Assembly: GCA_903878275.1 (NCBI GenBank)
Contig: CAIRHC010000010.1
Span: forward strand, 1,604-65,603
DNA: 64,000 nucleotides
Source of the DNA: Candidatus Vogelbacteria bacterium
GTDB lineage: Bacteria; Patescibacteriota; Minisyncoccia; Phycocordibacterales; XYD1-FULL-46-19
Reading direction: 5' to 3'
Numbering within the stretch: position 1 is the stretch's first letter; every line of letters begins with the position of its first letter. Both the position numbers and the translations under genes were made by a program. Shown piece by piece: positions 1 through 30,100 of this stretch. A model generated the notes under the pieces. That model made no database searches, had not been told where the DNA came from, and worked only from the letters and a program-made list of their open reading frames with translations.

Positions 1-2985
1 TTCCGCCAAAAATGGGGTGACTGGTGCCAAGACTTTAGCAATTTCTAATAAAACAAAACGAGTAACCGCTGAAACATTTTTCTTGTCATTTTCGTCGTCA
101 CTTTTAAAACGATCTCGCGAACGACGTAGATACCAAGTGGAGAGGTCATCAATAAACTCATCGATCGGGCGAAGGGCACGGTCTAGTTCATATTTATCAA
201 AAGATTCGGTCACCTGAATAATAGTTTCGCCAAGCCGGACCAAAATCCACTTGTCTAAAATATTGGAAATTTCCGTCGGTTTAAGTTCGAGATTTTTATT
301 TTCAGCTTCCACATAGGTCTGATAGAAAGAACAAACATTTTGCAAACGCATTATAATTTTCCGCTGAATTTCTGCCACGCCCTTTTCGGAAAAATTTAAA
401 TCTTCTGCCCGCACTACCGGTAAAGACATCAAATAAAAGCGGAGAGCGTCAGCCCCATAACGATCGACGACCAGTGAGAGCTCTGGAAAATTCCGCAAGC
501 TCTTTGACATTTTTTGACCATTTTCTGCAAGAAGAAAGCCATTAACAACCACATTTTTAAACGGACTTTCACCAAAAAGCGCGGTGCCCAGAACAATTAG
601 ACTATAAAACCAACCGCGAGTTTGATCCAAACCTTCGGCGATAAAATCTGCCGGCCAACCTTTCTTCTGATCCGGATCAAAATTATCTTTTTTAAACGGA
701 TAATGATCTTGCGCATAAGGCATCGCACCTGATTCAAACCAGCAGTCAAACACATCTGGAATTCTTTTCATTTCACCACCGCAAGCACAAGCAAAAGTAA
801 CCTGATCAATAAACGGTCGATGCACGTCAAGTTCAAAATCCTGATTGCACGGCAATGGTGAAAAAATTAGTTCACGCGATTCGCCGTTTTTTAATTGACC
901 ATCCCAGTGAATAGTTTTTGATAATTCTCGGGCGGTTTTACCAGCCGAGCCAGCAAACATCATCAAGATTGGAAAACCGTGTGCCACAATCAGAATATTT
1001 TTGTTTTGATATTTTTGTTCCAATTCGTACAACAAACTCATCACGCGTTTTTTAACGTTCGCACCGGTTTCACCATTTTCGTACTGACGATAAATTTTAT
1101 CGTAGATCGAATTTTCTTTTTGGTATTCGCGCCATTCTTTGCCGTCATAAGTGCCAACATTTATTTCGCGCAAACGCTCATCAAAAATTACTTGCTCGTC
1201 AGTCAAACCAAGTTTTTCTTTAACAATCTTCACCGTTTCTTTGGTTCGGCGAAAATCGGAAGAAATTATTAAATCAATTTTTTGCTTGGCAAGCTCTTCC
1301 GCTTCCGCCATTACTTCATTTTCGCCCAAGTCGGTCAAACCATCTTTGGCCAAATCAAGACAATTGACCCGACCTTCGACATTGTTGATCGCCTGTCCGT
1401 GACGCATCGCAATATATTTGTTACCAGTTTTTTTAGATAGACGACGAATATCATCGAGAGAGCCAATTACCTCTTTTTTATCGCAACTAGCACATTTCCA
1501 AACCGGAATCGGCGCACCCCAGTAGCGCGTCCGAGAAATCGCCCAGTCACGCGCGCCTTCGAGCCAATTGCCGAAACGTCCTTCTTTGATATTTTCCGGC
1601 ACCCAATTTGTTTTCAAATTATTCGCCACCAACTTATCTTTAAAATCAGTCACTTTCACAAACCAAGAAGAAGCTGCATAATTTAAAAGTGGCGTGGCAC
1701 AACGCCAACAATGTGGGTAAGAGTGAATTATTTTTTCTTTCGCAAACAACGTACCTTTGCCCGCCAAAAATTTAATTATTTCAATGTCGGCTTGTTGCGG
1801 ATTTTCAATCGGCTTTACTTTTTGTCCAGCAAAATCTTTAACCTCTGGTTTAAATTCACCATTCATTGCCACGTGCTGGATAAACGGCAATTTTTCTTTT
1901 ACACCAAGCGCCATATCGACTTCACCAAATGCCGGTGCAATATGCACAATCCCCGTCCCGCTTTCGGTCGTCACAAAATCGGCTGGGTAAATCTGCCAAC
2001 CACGTTCTTTGTTTTCTATTTTTTCATCATTCAAATAATAATCAAAAACTGGTTTGTATTTTTTACCGACTAGCTCTTGCCCGGAAATCTTTTTTTCTTC
2101 TGTAAAATTATTTTGTTCCATTTTGTTTAAAATCCATGGAACCCTTTCTGTCGCTACAATATATTTACCGCTCTTTAAAGATAATTCTCCATCTTTTATT
2201 CCTCTGCCCAAATCTGTATTATTTTGTAGAATTGAATAACTTATTTCAGGATTGACTGCCAATGCCACATTACCGGGCAAAGTCCACGGCGTCGTCGTCC
2301 ACGCCAAAACAAAAGTTCCCGGTTCGTCAACAAGTTCAAATTTTACCGTCACCGAAATATCCGTAATATCTTTGTAGCCTTGAGTTACTTCAAAATTGGA
2401 TAAGGTCGTCTCGCAACGAGGGCAAAGATGCATTGCTTTGTAACCTTCGTAAACTAAACCCTTGTCGGACAAATTCTTAAAAATCCACCAGACCGTTTCC
2501 GAATAGCTCGGATCCATTGTCCGGTAATCGTCTTCCATATCCACAAAACGTCCGAGTCTTGGCACAATTTTTCGCCAGTCATCAGCATAACGTAAGACAC
2601 TATCTTTGGCTTTTTGGTTGAAATTTTCAACACCGTAATCTTCGATATCTTTTTTGGTTTTTAAACCAAGTTCTTTTTCAATTAAATTTTCCACTGGCAG
2701 ACCGTGACAATCCCAACCCCAACGCCGACGGACATAAAAACCCTGCATCGTTTTGTAGCGAGGAATGACGTCTTTGATCGTGCCAGCGGTCAAATGACCA
2801 TAGTGAGGTAGCCCAGTCGCAAAGGGCGGACCATCATAAAAAGTAAAGGAACCTTTTGTTGATCCACTGATTAGTGACTTTTCTAGCGATTGCTCAAAAA
2901 TCTTATTCTCTTGCCAAAATTTTAGAATTTCTTCCTCGCGCTTAGCAATTTCTGATTTTTGCCCTTCATTTTCTTCAAGCGACAT
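1..2985 (-). CDS. ileS: Isoleucyl-tRNA synthetase, type 2. The N-terminal ~995 aa are present; the C-terminus lies beyond the window start. It carries an in-frame inserted PGAM-like domain.
   Basis: Manual minus-strand translation from ATG at 2985 gives MSLEENEGQKSEIAKREEEILKFWQENKIF... Class-I IleRS motifs are present: PPFATGLPHYGH (HIGH), TTTPWTLPGN (editing domain), YPHCWRCATP, DWAISRTRYWGAPIPVW, DVHRPFID, DVFDCWFESG, GQKMSKS. The ORF is open to position 1. It is absent from the ORF track because it is truncated by the window edge. Confidence 0.93.
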   Translation of the reverse strand, partial: MSLEENEGQKSEIAKREEEILKFWQENKIFEQSLEKSLISGSTKGSFTFYDGPPFATGLPHYGHLTAGTIKDVIPRYKTMQGFYVRRRWGWDCHGLPVENLIEKELGLKTKKDIEDYGVENFNQKAKDSVLRYADDWRKIVPRLGRFVDMEDDYRTMDPSYSETVWWIFKNLSDKGLVYEGYKAMHLCPRCETTLSNFEVTQGYKDITDISVTVKFELVDEPGTFVLAWTTTPWTLPGNVALAVNPEISYSILQNNTDLGRGIKDGELSLKSGKYIVATERVPWILNKMEQNNFTEEKKISGQELVGKKYKPVFDYYLNDEKIENKERGWQIYPADFVTTESGTGIVHIAPAFGEVDMALGVKEKLPFIQHVAMNGEFKPEVKDFAGQKVKPIENPQQADIEIIKFLAGKGTLFAKEKIIHSYPHCWRCATPLLNYAASSWFVKVTDFKDKLVANNLKTNWVPENIKEGRFGNWLEGARDWAISRTRYWGAPIPVWKCASCDKKEVIGSLDDIRRLSKKTGNKYIAMRHGQAINNVEGRVNCLDLAKDGLTDLGENEVMAEAEELAKQKIDLIISSDFRRTKETVKIVKEKLGLTDEQVIFDERLREINVGTYDGKEWREYQKENSIYDKIYRQYENGETGANVKKRVMSLLYELEQKYQNKNILIVAHGFPILMMFAGSAGKTARELSKTIHWDGQLKNGESRELIFSPLPCNQDFELDVHRPFIDQVTFACACGGEMKRIPDVFDCWFESGAMPYAQDHYPFKKDNFDPDQKKGWPADFIAEGLDQTRGWFYSLIVLGTALFGESPFKNVVVNGFLLAENGQKMSKSLRNFPELSLVVDRYGADALRFYLMSLPVVRAEDLNFSEKGVAEIQRKIIMRLQNVCSFYQTYVEAENKNLELKPTEISNILDKWILVRLGETIIQVTESFDKYELDRALRPIDEFIDDLSTWYLRRSRDRFKSDDENDKKNVSAVTRFVLLEIAKVLAPVTPFLAE
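846..1425 (-). other. Histidine phosphatase (phosphoglycerate-mutase-like) domain, ~190 aa, inserted inside IleRS between the IGS..L segment and the DxHRPxID motif
   Basis: Translated insert reads NKYIAMRHGQAINNVEGRVNCLDLAKDG...SDFRRTKETV...ERLREINVGTYDGKEW...ILIVAHGFPILM. The RHG and AHG catalytic His motifs and an SxxRRxxET block are typical of the PGAM/histidine-phosphatase superfamily. The insert is flanked by IleRS WKCASCDKKEVIGSLDDI upstream and SPLPCNQDFELDVHRPFIDQVTFACACGG downstream. Confidence 0.75.
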
Positions 2986-3091
2986 TATTATAATTTACCG
3001 TAAAATACGGATATTTACAATATCGCTCGAGTTTGATAATAATACAAATAGAGAGGAAATTGTTCCGATCTCAAAATAAGGAGAAAAAGTA

Positions 3092-3301
3092 ATGATAAAC
3101 AAAGAAGGTTCTGGGTTGTCTTTTGTCGACAGCAATACTGGGCGAATTTTTCTGACTATCTCTCGTTATGATATAAAGGGAACAGCTAATCCGCCGAAGT
3201 ACATAAAAATAACGGATGCTATCGGTCGCCAGCACTACGCAAACGACAACCACGAAGAATATCACGTCTTCGACAAAATCTTAACCAGTAAAGGTTTGTA
3301 A
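3092..3301 (+). CDS. Hypothetical small protein (69 aa)
   Basis: ORF with Shine-Dalgarno AAGGAGAAAAAG ending 5 nt before the ATG. It is immediately followed by a GC-palindrome terminator. No recognisable motif. Confidence 0.5.
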   Translation: MINKEGSGLSFVDSNTGRIFLTISRYDIKGTANPPKYIKITDAIGRQHYANDNHEEYHVFDKILTSKGL

Positions 3302-3318
3302 CAAAACAGCGGTTTCTA

Positions 3319-3356
3319 CCCCGCGAGCGCAAGCGCTCGCGGGGCTTTATTTTTGG
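3319..3356 (+). terminator. Rho-independent terminator: 26-nt palindrome CCCCGCGAGCGCAAGCGCTCGCGGGG followed by CTTTATTTTT
   Basis: Perfect 12-bp GC stem plus U-tract directly after the stop of the 3092..3301 ORF. An identical palindrome recurs at 30064-30089. Confidence 0.8.
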
Positions 3357-3424
3357 CTTTACTAAATAATTTTGGTATGTTAGAAATAAATCGGAAATAT
3401 AAAAATAGAAAGGAGGTGATTTTT

Positions 3425-3619
3425 GTGGAACTAATAGTTACCCGCGAAGGTGACAACGAAATCCATATTTACGAGGATATCGGAACAGAAGCTATCATTC
3501 GTCGGGAAAAAAATAAGATAATCCTAACGATGTGGCCAGCCGATCCTTTGGTAATTAGGAAGAATGAACCACTGTATAAACATTTCAAAGCGATTTTAGA
3601 TGATCCCGAAATCGGCTAA
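3425..3619 (+). CDS. Hypothetical small protein (~64 aa from a GTG start; the track ORF starts earlier at 3353)
   Basis: Strong SD GAAAGGAGGTGA 7 nt upstream of GTG at 3425. A hairpin terminator follows. There is weak C-terminal similarity to the preceding small ORF (HVFDKIL vs KHFKAIL). Confidence 0.45.
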   Translation: MELIVTREGDNEIHIYEDIGTEAIIRREKNKIILTMWPADPLVIRKNEPLYKHFKAILDDPEIG

Positions 3620-3632
3620 ATTGCAATTTCAT

Positions 3633-3672
3633 CCCACACGAGCGCTTGCGCTCGTGTGGGATTTATTTTAAA
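3633..3672 (+). terminator. Rho-independent terminator CCCACACGAGCGC-TT-GCGCTCGTGTGGG plus ATTTATTTT
   Basis: 13-bp perfect stem plus T-run. It sits between convergent genes: the small ORF on + and argS on -. Confidence 0.75.
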
Positions 3673-3674
3673 TT

Positions 3675-5411
3675 TTACATTTTTTCCAAAACCGGAATCG
3701 CCAAGATATTCAAACCGTTTTTCAAAACAATCGCCGTTGCTTTCGCCAGAGTCAAGCGTGAGGCTTCTTCATCACTGCCGATAATTTTATTTTGCGCATA
3801 AAAAGAATTGAAGGCACCAGCGATACTTATTAAATAAGAGACTAGTGTTTGCGGCGAAAGATTGTTGTAAGATTTTTCGATAATCTCTGGTAACAAATAA
3901 AGTTGTCGTGCCAAAATCGAACTGGCTTCTTCTGGCGATATTTCATCCCCAACCTCTTTCCCTTGTTCCGAGGCTTTTAATATTACTGAAAAAATTCTAG
4001 CATAAGTATATTGCAAATAAGGACCGGAATCACCTTCAAAAGATAGCGATTTAGCAAAATCAAAAATAATATCTTGCCCTGGTGATTGTTTTAAGATCGA
4101 ATACTTCAACGCCCCGACCGCCACTTTTTCCGCAATCTGCTTTTTCTCATCAATCGACATTTCTTGCCCAACCATTTTTTCTAAAACTTTTTCGCCCACC
4201 TCGCCGATCAGATTCTTTGCGGTAATCACATCGCCAGTGCGCGAAGACATTTTTCCAGTCGGCAAACGCAACATTCCGTGGGCGATATGTTTAGTTTTTT
4301 CGGCAACTTCTGGCAAAATTTGTTCTAAGGCTTTCAACATCACCCGAAAATATTCTTTTTGTTCTTCAGCAGTAATGGAAATTGATAAATCAAATGGGTA
4401 TTTTTCCAATTTAATTTTTGCCAAACCTAAATCTTTCGCCTCATAAGTCGGCAAACCTTCATTGTTTATAAAAACCCGTGTATGCAAAGACACATCGAAC
4501 AAGTCACCCCTAAAAACCACCGCCCCATCGCTTTTTTCAAACACACCACTCGCCAGACCATCTTCGACAAGCTTCTGCCCGACCGCCCAAGTTTCACTTT
4601 CAAAGAAATAATAATCAAACGCTTTCCCCTCTTTTTCGTTGTGGTTTGTGCCGAGCAGTTTATAAATAGTTTCAAAATAATCCAAACTCCACTCACGACC
4701 TAAGTCGTAAAGCTGGTTGATATGGTCGTCGTTTCGTTTGTAAACCTTTTTATTTAAAATAGTTATGCCTTCTTTGGCTTCTTGATTGTTGTCAAAATCA
4801 TAAGCACCTAGAGCGTAACACTGTCCAAGATAAGCCACTTTTTCTAGCAGATTTGCTTCTCGATCAGGCTGTTCATTTTCTTTGCGCACCATTCCCCATA
4901 AAGTTTTCGCCACATGCATTCCGACATCACCCTGATAACAAGCTCGCTTGACCTCTGCCCCACTGGCTTCAATGATTCGCGAAAGAGTTTCGCCGATTGT
5001 ATTATTCATCAAATGCCCAACATGAAAAAGCTTAAACGGATTTGGATCGGTGTATTCCACCATTACTTTTTGACCAACCAACAAATCATTGTGACCAAAA
5101 CTATCACCCGTCATTAAAATTTCTTTCAAGTTCTCGATAAAAAAGTTTTTTGACAAAGTAAAATTGATAAAACCAGGACCCGCCACATAAACCTCTTCGA
5201 GATTTTCATTTTTGACACTCAAAATTTTGTCCTTAATTTTTTCTGCCAGTTTTACTGCGTCTTCACTATTTTTTTGCGCCAAAACCAACGCGATGTTGGT
5301 CGAAAAATCACCAAAAGTTAATTCGGGATGAAAAAGCTCAATTTTTTCTGCCGACAAACCGATTTCCTCAACTGAACTCGCGATTAAATTAGACAATAGA
5401 TTTTTGATCAT
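3675..5411 (-). CDS. argS: Arginyl-tRNA synthetase
   Basis: The translation has an ArgRS-like N-terminus (MIKNLLSNLIASSVEEIGLSAEKIELFHPE...), HVGH class-I motif, GKMSSRTG and a C-terminal ...LEKM. The first ATG is at 5411. The track ORF uses an upstream TTG at 5450 as an alternative start. Confidence 0.9.
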   Translation of the reverse strand: MIKNLLSNLIASSVEEIGLSAEKIELFHPELTFGDFSTNIALVLAQKNSEDAVKLAEKIKDKILSVKNENLEEVYVAGPGFINFTLSKNFFIENLKEILMTGDSFGHNDLLVGQKVMVEYTDPNPFKLFHVGHLMNNTIGETLSRIIEASGAEVKRACYQGDVGMHVAKTLWGMVRKENEQPDREANLLEKVAYLGQCYALGAYDFDNNQEAKEGITILNKKVYKRNDDHINQLYDLGREWSLDYFETIYKLLGTNHNEKEGKAFDYYFFESETWAVGQKLVEDGLASGVFEKSDGAVVFRGDLFDVSLHTRVFINNEGLPTYEAKDLGLAKIKLEKYPFDLSISITAEEQKEYFRVMLKALEQILPEVAEKTKHIAHGMLRLPTGKMSSRTGDVITAKNLIGEVGEKVLEKMVGQEMSIDEKKQIAEKVAVGALKYSILKQSPGQDIIFDFAKSLSFEGDSGPYLQYTYARIFSVILKASEQGKEVGDEISPEEASSILARQLYLLPEIIEKSYNNLSPQTLVSYLISIAGAFNSFYAQNKIIGSDEEASRLTLAKATAIVLKNGLNILAIPVLEKM

Positions 5412-5455
5412 AGGCAAGGACAGAATACCACAAATCCCCACTTTTTTCAAAAAAA

Positions 5456-26950: not shown

Positions 26951-27027
26951 GGACGCTTAGCTCAGTTGGCTAGAGCATCCCGTTTACACCGGGAAGGTCG
27001 GAGGTTCGAGCCCTCCAGCGTCCACCA
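26951..27027 (+). tRNA. tRNA-Val (TAC), CCA encoded
   Basis: GGACGCTTAGCTCAGTTGGCTAGAGCATCCCGTTTACACCGGGA...GGTTCGAGCCCTCCAGCGTCCACCA. Confidence 0.9.
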
Positions 27028-27028
27028 C

Positions 27029-27100
27029 GCCCTCGTAGTTCAATGGATAGAACCGCGGACTTCTAAGCCGCTGATGTTGGTCCGATTCCAACCGAGGGCA
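27029..27100 (+). tRNA. tRNA-Arg (TCT)
   Basis: GCCCTCGTAGTTCAATGGATAGAAC...GGACTTCTAAGCC...GTTGGTCCGATTCCAACCGAGGGCA. One A-G mismatch closes the anticodon stem. CCA is not encoded. Confidence 0.82.
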
Positions 27101-30063: not shown

Positions 30064-30100
30064 CCCGCGAGCGCAAGCGCTCGCGGGGAAACAAAAAAAA
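30064..30100 (-). terminator. Terminator palindrome CCCCGCGAGCGCAAGCGCTCGCGGGG (identical to the copy at 3319) with U-tract on the minus strand
   Basis: Exact 26-nt repeat of the element at 3319-3344. Located after the dapA stop. The plus-strand flank TAAAAATAA gives a T-run for the minus-strand transcript. Confidence 0.75.

Follow-up and report, generated by a model that had tools for sequence, protein, structure and literature searches.

A complete histidine phosphatase domain inserted in the CP3 region of a type-2 isoleucyl-tRNA synthetase, and its split counterpart beside ileS, in Patescibacteria

Aminoacyl-tRNA synthetases are very well studied, and the extras known to be built into them are editing hydrolases and tRNA-binding modules. 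What, then, is a phosphatase-like domain doing inside the isoleucyl-tRNA synthetase (IleRS) of a Candidatus Vogelbacteria bacterium? The question is raised by a stretch of 64,000 nucleotides (nt) of contig CAIRHC010000010.1 (positions 1,604 to 65,603 of the forward strand, assembly GCA_903878275.1), hereafter the window, which begins within the gene ileS. An initial annotation, made from the letters alone, had read in this gene a histidine-phosphatase domain of the phosphoglycerate mutase (PGAM) type, inserted in frame in the synthetase catalytic core. Pfam searches, alignments, recurrence in other genomes and AlphaFold2 modelling agree on that architecture. Sequence comparison and structural models lead us to consider it probable that the gene encodes a functional type-2 IleRS (IleRS2) with a catalytically competent histidine phosphatase in its CP3 region, and that this phosphatase is present as a partner dedicated to IleRS and not by chance.

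The host gene occupies the minus strand from its ATG at position 2985 down to position 1, as a single open reading frame (ORF) of 995 codons that has no interruption and continues past the window start. The complete protein, found by homologue search (P0178), has 1209 amino acids (aa) and is encoded on a contig of 97,221 bp; only aa 1-995 lie in the window and the C-terminal 214 aa lie outside. In the window protein, Pfam identifies tRNA-synt_1 as two stretches (PF00133, E=2e-133) plus Anticodon_1 (PF08264), and the matches of the complete protein to PF08264 and PF19302 correspond to the C-terminal organization of type 2. All the synthetase motifs quoted in the initial annotation, like the phosphatase motifs considered below, are found by translation at their positions. 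The N-terminal part (aa 1-515, nt 1441-2985) comprises the Rossmann N-half, the CP1 editing domain, the CP core/CP2 and the N-terminal arm of CP3, as judged from motif positions and from alignment to residues 386-480 of Thermus thermophilus IleRS (PDB 1ILE), with domain names after PMC7191050. It contains HYGH of the class I Rossmann fold (aa 61-64, nt 2794-2805), TTTPWTLPGN of the CP1 editing domain (aa 230-239, nt 2269-2298), YPHCWRC (aa 423-429), WGAPIPVW (aa 489-496) and IGSLDDI (aa 507-513). The C-terminal part present in the window (aa 718-995, nt 1-834), delimited by motifs, Pfam and the 1ILE alignment, holds DVHRPFID (aa 720-727), DVFDCWFESG of the isoleucine pocket, KMSKS (aa 825-829, nt 499-513) and the start of the anticodon-binding domain. 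A second CP1 editing signature accompanies TTTPWTLPGN, a GTG.VH.AP-type motif SGTGIVHIAPAFG, and the editing-domain residues T230-T232, P233, W234, T235, H348, A350 and D357 are identical throughout 76 relatives.

Sequence and fold both place this enzyme in type 2, the eukaryote/Thermus-like type. With the insert removed, the protein matches 1ILE in the PDB with E=9e-90 and eukaryotic and P. megaterium IleRS2 with E=1e-74 to 1e-84, the IleRS1 sequences scoring E=3e-34 or weaker. Modelled by AlphaFold2 with 76 homologues, aa 1-995 reach a mean pLDDT of 89.5 and a pTM of 0.86, and a Foldseek comparison of this model with the PDB ranks IleRS2 structures first (8C9D, E=1e-75; 1ILE, TM 0.83). Hence, the host enzyme belongs to IleRS2 and not to IleRS1, as first proposed. 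It shares with the T. thermophilus (1ILE) and P. megaterium (8C8U/8C9D) enzymes the HYGH and KMSKS motifs, the CP1 editing motifs, the anticodon-binding domain and the C-terminal DUF5915 domain. No second ileS and no second His_Phos gene were found within the 64-kb window.

In place of the ~12-residue loop at the tip of CP3, the window enzyme has an enzymatic domain of ~200 aa, a feature that no solved or described IleRS is known to have. Between 'GS..EL' and 'D.HRP.ID', insert-less type-2 IleRSs (P0017, P0022, P0027 and residues 480-488 of 1ILE) contain ~12-15 residues, in keeping with the figure of about 15 initially given for orthologs. The same gap in the window protein holds ~200 residues, and the inserted module with both linkers therefore spans aa ~516-717 (nt 835-1440, minus strand). 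Alignment with insert-less IleRS2 and 1ILE thus supports the boundaries: the location first assigned (~190 aa, 846-1425) stands, the extent being slightly wider. When the flanks without the insert are aligned to 1ILE, the break falls between residues ~480 and 488, inside CP3. The site had been described as following the zinc knuckle; it does precede DxHRPFID, but it actually lies between the CxxC and CxC halves of the knuckle. In the alignment with 1ILE, the first half (C498-A-S-C501, nt 1483-1494) is paired with the CxxC that includes QACGK and the second (C733-A-C735, nt 781-789) with the CxC in 'ACACGG', so that the CxxC...CxC knuckle is common to both proteins.

In T. thermophilus, CP3 bears a Zn-binding motif (PMC7191050), and CP3 residues border the active site on one side (PMC12077802). 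In the window protein, the C-terminal arm of CP3 reaches the catalytic-domain segment DVFDCWFESG within ~30 residues. The insertion between the two arms, together with the place of CP3 beside the active site, positions the phosphatase at the tip of a surface hairpin near the synthetic site and leaves the catalytic core intact. In the full AlphaFold2 model, the insert has pLDDT values of 86-97 and the junction blocks have 85 and 92. The window protein has all four knuckle cysteines, which are kept in only ~47-49% of 80 insert-bearing sequences (mostly L001-L080). Therefore, the other half have lost the Zn site yet keep the insert.

What kind of domain has been inserted? The stretch 846-1425 taken alone matches His_Phos_1 (PF00300) with E=1.1e-31 and 110.5 bits, against a gathering cut-off of 21.7, over profile positions 3-168 of 194. 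In the whole protein, the match has E=3e-30 to 3.8e-30 and is flanked on both sides by tRNA-synt_1 stretches. The His_Phos_1 core covers aa 526-689 (nt 919-1410, minus strand), as located by Pfam, AlphaFold2 and Foldseek. The motif IAMRHGQA (aa 525-532) contains the catalytic R528-H529-G530 (nt 1396-1404), also present in the free and TsaC-fused forms described below, of which H529 is the predicted phospho-accepting nucleophile. R580 (nt 1246-1248), in SDFRRTKET (aa 576-584), is the second arginine of the phosphate pocket, and H669 (nt 979-981), in LIVAHG (aa 665-670), is the second catalytic histidine. The predicted proton donor is E607 (nt 1165-1167), which we take to correspond to Glu89 of dPGM from its position in the 'RL.E...G' motif. 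The AlphaFold2 model of the insert alone has a pLDDT of 90.9 and a pTM of 0.89, which bears out the proposed fold. Foldseek relates this model (TM 0.74-0.82, 22-26% identity) to GpgP/Rv2419c and related hydrolases, PspA, a riboflavin-pathway histidine phosphatase, PhoE and CobC; the top PDB sequence matches are PspA, PhoE and GpgP.

The substrate residues specific to dPGM are an Arg and a Tyr following the catalytic Glu, and the HGN motif following the second His. In the insert, the positions after E607 are I, N and V, which are not mutase-type, and the two residues after H669 are variable among the 80 sequences, so that the mutase HGN motif is absent. Phosphoglycerate mutases also rank beneath phosphatases among the structural neighbours. 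The term 'PGAM-like' thus applies to the fold only; the mutase identity that it implies does not hold, and the domain lies on the phosphatase branch. A dPGM/GpmA assignment was likewise rejected on NCBIfam scores (71, 21 and 20 bits against cut-offs of 225, 82 and 305). CobC, PspA, SixA and GpmB assignments were also rejected, all falling below their NCBIfam cut-offs (for the insert, CobC 77/163, PspA 61/350 and SixA 25/74.5 bits). The archaeal dPGM model gives the insert and its free-standing relatives 71-113 bits against 225, and these relatives likewise remain beneath the curated cut-off of every characterized NCBIfam family. Such scores and the non-mutase residues indicate a phosphatase-type member of the superfamily outside all named families. 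As read from sequence and model, the insert is a complete branch-1 histidine phosphatase domain of the PhoE/CobC/PspA/GpgP kind, with putative turnover.

Several characterized phosphatases, namely GpgP (Rv2419c) of Mycobacterium tuberculosis, the phosphoserine phosphatase PspA of H. thermophilus, PhoE of Geobacillus, the alpha-ribazole phosphatase CobC and the riboflavin-pathway enzyme (9MMH), resemble the window domain in fold, size and catalytic set (RHG/Arg/Glu/His). The difference is that the window domain is embedded in IleRS, or genomically tied to it in its free form. The insert's second-best NCBIfam match is the RNase H/acid phosphatase of the M. tuberculosis Rv2228c type (NF005567), which also joins a CobC-like His_Phos domain to a nucleic-acid enzyme. 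There, however, the fusion is end to end and the partner is another enzyme, and the insert scores 74 bits against a cut-off of 326.

The superfamily also includes the protein phosphatases SixA, PGAM5 and Sts. A domain of this sort could remove inhibitory phosphorylation from IleRS or neighbouring synthetases, such as that set on class I synthetases by HipA-like toxin kinases, in a self-repair in cis. The short cap region of the AlphaFold2 model (~aa 605-640, two short helices) would suit a protein substrate, as would the link to two class I synthetase genes reported below. However, SixA matches reach only 25-40 bits where the cut-off is 74.5, neither SixA, Sts nor PGAM5 is among the top 50 structural neighbours of the insert, and the conserved neighbourhood showed no gene for a kinase. 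We consider a protein phosphatase improbable.

Is the architecture peculiar to this genome? A scan with the insert profile, using one genome per Genome Taxonomy Database (GTDB) species and confirmation by tblastn, gave at least 213 confirmed loci among species-representative genomes. Details were taken from the best 80. These 80 of at least 213 loci cover the whole insert at 36-47% identity and all belong to Patescibacteria, with labels that include Nomurabacteria, Paceibacterota, Taylorbacteria, Zambryskibacteria and Adlerbacteria among others. In 79 of the 80 fetched loci, the domain lies within a single ORF of ~1150-1250 aa with KMSKS downstream. PF00300 also occurs in each of the 120 top-ranking homologues of the window IleRS, which are 54-76% identical to it apart from the protein itself (100%). 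Close relatives thus share the insert, which is a clade-wide trait of Paceibacteria-type Patescibacteria and not peculiar to the window genome. One further IleRS, P0289 (1325 aa), carries the His_Phos insert at aa 664-827 plus a GNAT Acetyltransf_3 domain (RimJ/RimL-like) at aa 285-415, in the CP1/editing region. It represents a single cluster on one 22.6-kb contig and is named 'GNAT family N-acetyltransferase [Patescibacteria group bacterium]' at NCBI.

The same recurrence bears on whether the insertion is genuine. The in-frame architecture is found at 36-47% insert identity in at least 79 independent genomes, including the closed chromosome CP060229.1, plus many metagenome contigs. The GC content of the window insert (0.39-0.40) is the same as that of its flanks, and composition is uniform over the junctions. 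An assembly chimera, a mis-join or a recent foreign insertion is thereby ruled out, with a negligible residual probability, and the initial view of a true domain insertion, not a fusion or assembly artefact, is upheld.

Conservation within the insert is uneven. In the 80 insert-bearing sequences, R528, H529, G530, R580, E639, R647 and H669 are 100% conserved, and N535 and E607 99% conserved. The linker residues are also kept (N522 99%, P712 97%, N714 96%, E718 100%). In contrast, mean identity to the window is 41% for the whole insert versus 58-78% for the IleRS core domains. Retention of catalytic and linker residues while the rest of the insert diverged indicates selection on catalysis and on the mounting of the domain. 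Many synthetase appendages are non-catalytic, and the insert could in principle be only a structural or ligand-sensing appendage of CP3. However, a catalytic set that is invariant or 99% conserved while the remaining domain is ~40% identical makes this highly improbable.

A specific relation to IleRS is indicated by genomes in which the phosphatase is a separate gene. The nearest free-standing relatives are proteins of ~190 aa from the same phylum, 34-38% identical to the insert (E=1e-18 to 1e-23). In four contigs, the gene of one of them, P0023, precedes that of a 967-aa insert-less IleRS2 by 50 nt and shares its strand. Two others, P0026 and P0031, lie between argS, the arginyl-tRNA synthetase (ArgRS) gene, and a large downstream gene, which in locus L088 is an insert-less IleRS 50% identical to the window enzyme. 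Scanning metagenomes with a free-form profile gave 80 loci: 43 with a free gene before ileS, 5 in which the contig ends before any downstream gene, and 32 in which the domain lies inside ileS. All 43 assessable free phosphatase genes are thus followed immediately downstream by an insert-less ileS, mostly at a distance of 5-125 nt. These 43 IleRS sequences are only 35-60% identical to that of the window. No extra phosphatase match was found anywhere in the 32 loci with the inserted form, and more distant His_Phos proteins are not adjacent to ileS. The split and inserted forms are mutually exclusive; in the window lineage, ileS itself encodes the phosphatase and no free gene occupies the place before it. 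Taken together, the adjacency in 43 of 43 loci, the exclusive forms and the location of distant His_Phos proteins elsewhere identify the phosphatase as a specific genomic partner of IleRS.

In eleven of the free-form loci (L081, L096, L099-L103, L109, L122, L127 and L130), the accompanying IleRS is divergent, with 35-36% identity to the window protein by tblastn and 41-49% to the nearest insert-bearing IleRS on trimmed columns, and with the motifs 'WGLALPIFEC' and 'PWLDAG'. The gene pairing therefore spans two IleRS subtypes. In most metagenome loci with enough upstream sequence, argS is the direct upstream neighbour. The window keeps this argS-ileS synteny: argS occupies 3675-5450 and ileS starts at 2985, both on the minus strand, and the argS homologue adjoins the phosphatase/ileS module upstream.

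These observations bear on whether the domain could be an unrelated housekeeping phosphatase acting on phosphoserine, a sugar phosphate or an intermediate of a cofactor pathway, that is, an operon neighbour captured neutrally in a tolerant surface loop of IleRS, which is essential and constantly expressed, without any role in aminoacylation. Its nearest characterized relatives are indeed metabolic small-molecule phosphatases. CP3 is variable and insertion-tolerant, the Zn site being gone in about half of the sequences, and the insert diverges faster than the IleRS core. Moreover, fusions of unrelated genes are known in reduced genomes. Neutral capture would nevertheless have to accommodate an adjacency to ileS kept in 43 of 43 loci across IleRSs 35-60% identical to the window's, the mutual exclusion of split and inserted forms, and conserved linkers with confidently predicted junctions. 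It would also have to accommodate a second fusion, in which the partner likewise belongs to the translation apparatus and forms an acyl-adenylate. We regard this explanation as rather unlikely.

The second fusion is seen in P0010, in which a TsaC/Sua5 threonylcarbamoyl-AMP synthase, recognized by TIGR00057 at 155 bits (cut-off 123), bears the IleRS-type phosphatase at its C-terminus. The phosphatase sits at the place where Sua5 proteins normally bear the SUA5 domain. The gene is found at positions 619-1758 of locus L085 and 589-1728 of L086, preceded by a HAD hydrolase gene. An exhaustive search retrieved full-length relatives with 66% and 47% identity (P0298 and P0299), making at least three clusters at 50% identity; the TsaC fusion is therefore a real, though small, lineage. 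At E<=1e-15, free, IleRS-inserted and TsaC-fused forms together account for at least 1702 clusters, and the best 120 of the 1702 domain-profile matches are all free forms except one. On the basis of mutual best similarity and the tie to ileS, we propose that the three forms constitute an IleRS-associated phosphatase subfamily.

How might such a partner act? By analogy with the family, His529 would attack a terminal phosphate held by R528, R580 and N535, Glu607 would protonate the leaving group, and water would then hydrolyse the phospho-histidine enzyme. IleRS, ArgRS and TsaC share one step, in which ATP and an amino acid give an acyl-adenylate and pyrophosphate (PPi), AMP being freed later. 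The leading candidate for the substrate, still tentative, is a phosphate-bearing product or inhibitor of adenylate chemistry near CP3, such as PPi, AMP or a related nucleotide. This suggestion derives from the TsaC fusion, which fits it through the shared adenylate step, from the small-molecule structural neighbours and from the position beside the cleft. Hydrolysis of the product would make activation irreversible or clear an inhibitor. The initial annotation had named aminoacyl-adenylate, Ap4A or a tRNA 2',3'-cyclic or 3'-phosphate end as candidates. The first two and the cyclic phosphate are diesters or anhydrides, hence atypical substrates of this fold; a tRNA 3'-phosphate is possible.

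Several points weigh against a dedicated IleRS phosphatase acting on adenylate chemistry. We know of no branch-1 histidine phosphatase for which PPi hydrolysis has been established. The need for product clearing in IleRS alone among synthetases has no explanation. The adjacency of the genes could result in part from inherited operon structure. Finally, the link to argS looks looser among the insert-bearing genome loci, where argS is directly upstream in 37 of the 61 with enough upstream sequence.

The next candidate for a substrate is the tRNA end itself. The embedded phosphatase might act on the CCA end and remove a phosphate from its 3' or 2' position, or a phosphate or pyrophosphate that a toxin has added, so that damaged or blocked tRNA could then be charged. 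More generally, it could be a third catalytic site of IleRS working on the tRNA or adenylate substrate, which removes such CCA-end groups or destroys a phosphorylated inhibitor before charging. CP3 adjoins the catalytic cleft, and both synthetase partners, IleRS and ArgRS, are tRNA enzymes. The free forms are very basic, with a median net charge of +20 over 188 aa and a pI of ~10; their charge density far exceeds that of their own IleRS (+12 over 745 aa), as would suit a protein that binds RNA. A precedent exists in the E. coli CCA-adding enzyme, which works on the tRNA 3'-end and to which a phosphohydrolase is attached as an HD domain (phosphatase/2',3'-cyclic phosphodiesterase); the HD fold is unrelated to His_Phos and the likeness is an analogy only. 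On the other hand, TsaC/Sua5 works elsewhere than at tRNA ends, the near structural neighbours are all small-molecule phosphatases, and in the window's group the inserted forms, with a median net charge of -1, lack this basicity. A literature search found no paper tying the superfamily to RNA ends, and the choice of IleRS in particular is left without reason. Both the healing of tRNA ends and the broader role as a third site thus appear doubtful. Net charge was discarded as a test of RNA binding, because it is confounded by lineage-wide differences in proteome pI.

Did the insertion occur once? The insert-bearing sequences form two groups distinguished by a 'CWPEK' signature, which is present in 1 of 81 sequences of the window's group, in 29 of 32 of the second inserted group and in 42 of 50 free forms. 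The two insert-bearing groups do not differ in insertion point or in linker lengths. Neighbour-joining bootstraps of the IleRS-core tree require 5-7 state changes versus ~23 for shuffled labels. This pattern could stem from more than one insertion at a single site, from ileS having been exchanged between lineages or from tree error. If insertion was repeated at one site, docking of the free protein at CP3 would be suggested.

The spacer between argS and ileS in the window (2986-3674, 690 nt) is longer than in relatives, where it is mostly far shorter. No remnant of a free phosphatase gene was found in it: when 50 free-form sequences were compared with it by tblastn, the matches were all short and attributable to chance (E>0.02). 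On its plus strand, the spacer contains two small ORFs (3092-3301 and 3353-3619), neither of which matches a Pfam family; after each of them comes a GC-rich hairpin with a T-run (3319-3344 and 3631-3662). The cores of these hairpins are two copies of a 16-nt palindrome, CGAGCGCWWGCGCTCG, that occurs three times in the window (3324-3339, 3639-3654 and 30068-30083), with none expected in shuffled sequences. The palindrome could represent either a terminator present in several copies or a small palindromic element. Further along, the window encodes eight tRNA genes between 24818 and 40082, two of them adjacent at 26951-27100.

Autonomous modules nested in class Ia synthetases are known, such as the CP1 editing domain, the leucine-specific domain of LeuRS and the INS subdomain in ARD2 of IleRS2, and they add or tune a function in the same way. 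Those modules, however, are native hydrolytic editing or tRNA-binding elements, while the insert described here is a phosphatase recruited from a separate gene. According to the initial annotation, no PGAM-like module is known in an IleRS, and our literature search found no paper on a His_Phos insert in IleRS. A term search of a 2026 survey of 96,219 IleRS sequences met neither phosphatase nor Patescibacteria. The insert-bearing proteins are already in public databases with precomputed Pfam matches, under uninformative names, so that there is no novelty in the sequences themselves. What appears to be new is that the insert, its split-gene counterpart and the link to TsaC are recognized. At NCBI, the insert-bearing IleRSs (P0178-P0297) are called 'class I tRNA ligase family protein' or 'hypothetical protein', and at JGI some of the ~190-aa free phosphatases (P0085 and P0130 among the named entries) are called 'isoleucyl-tRNA synthetase'. 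Such misannotation of both forms can distort metabolic reconstructions, in which they may be counted as phosphoglycerate mutases or as a missing IleRS.

Overall, hundreds of Patescibacteria species seem to carry an apparently active phosphatase of an unrelated superfamily beside the aminoacylation site. If the phosphatase did serve IleRS as a third catalytic site, the split genes would represent the same machine in two subunits, the free phosphatase docking at CP3, and a new class of synthetase-linked quality control or repair would be at hand. The pairing of split and inserted forms may in itself reveal where the free partner docks on IleRS. Together, the inserted form and its split counterpart before ileS point to an undescribed requirement of translation in these minimal, symbiotic bacteria.

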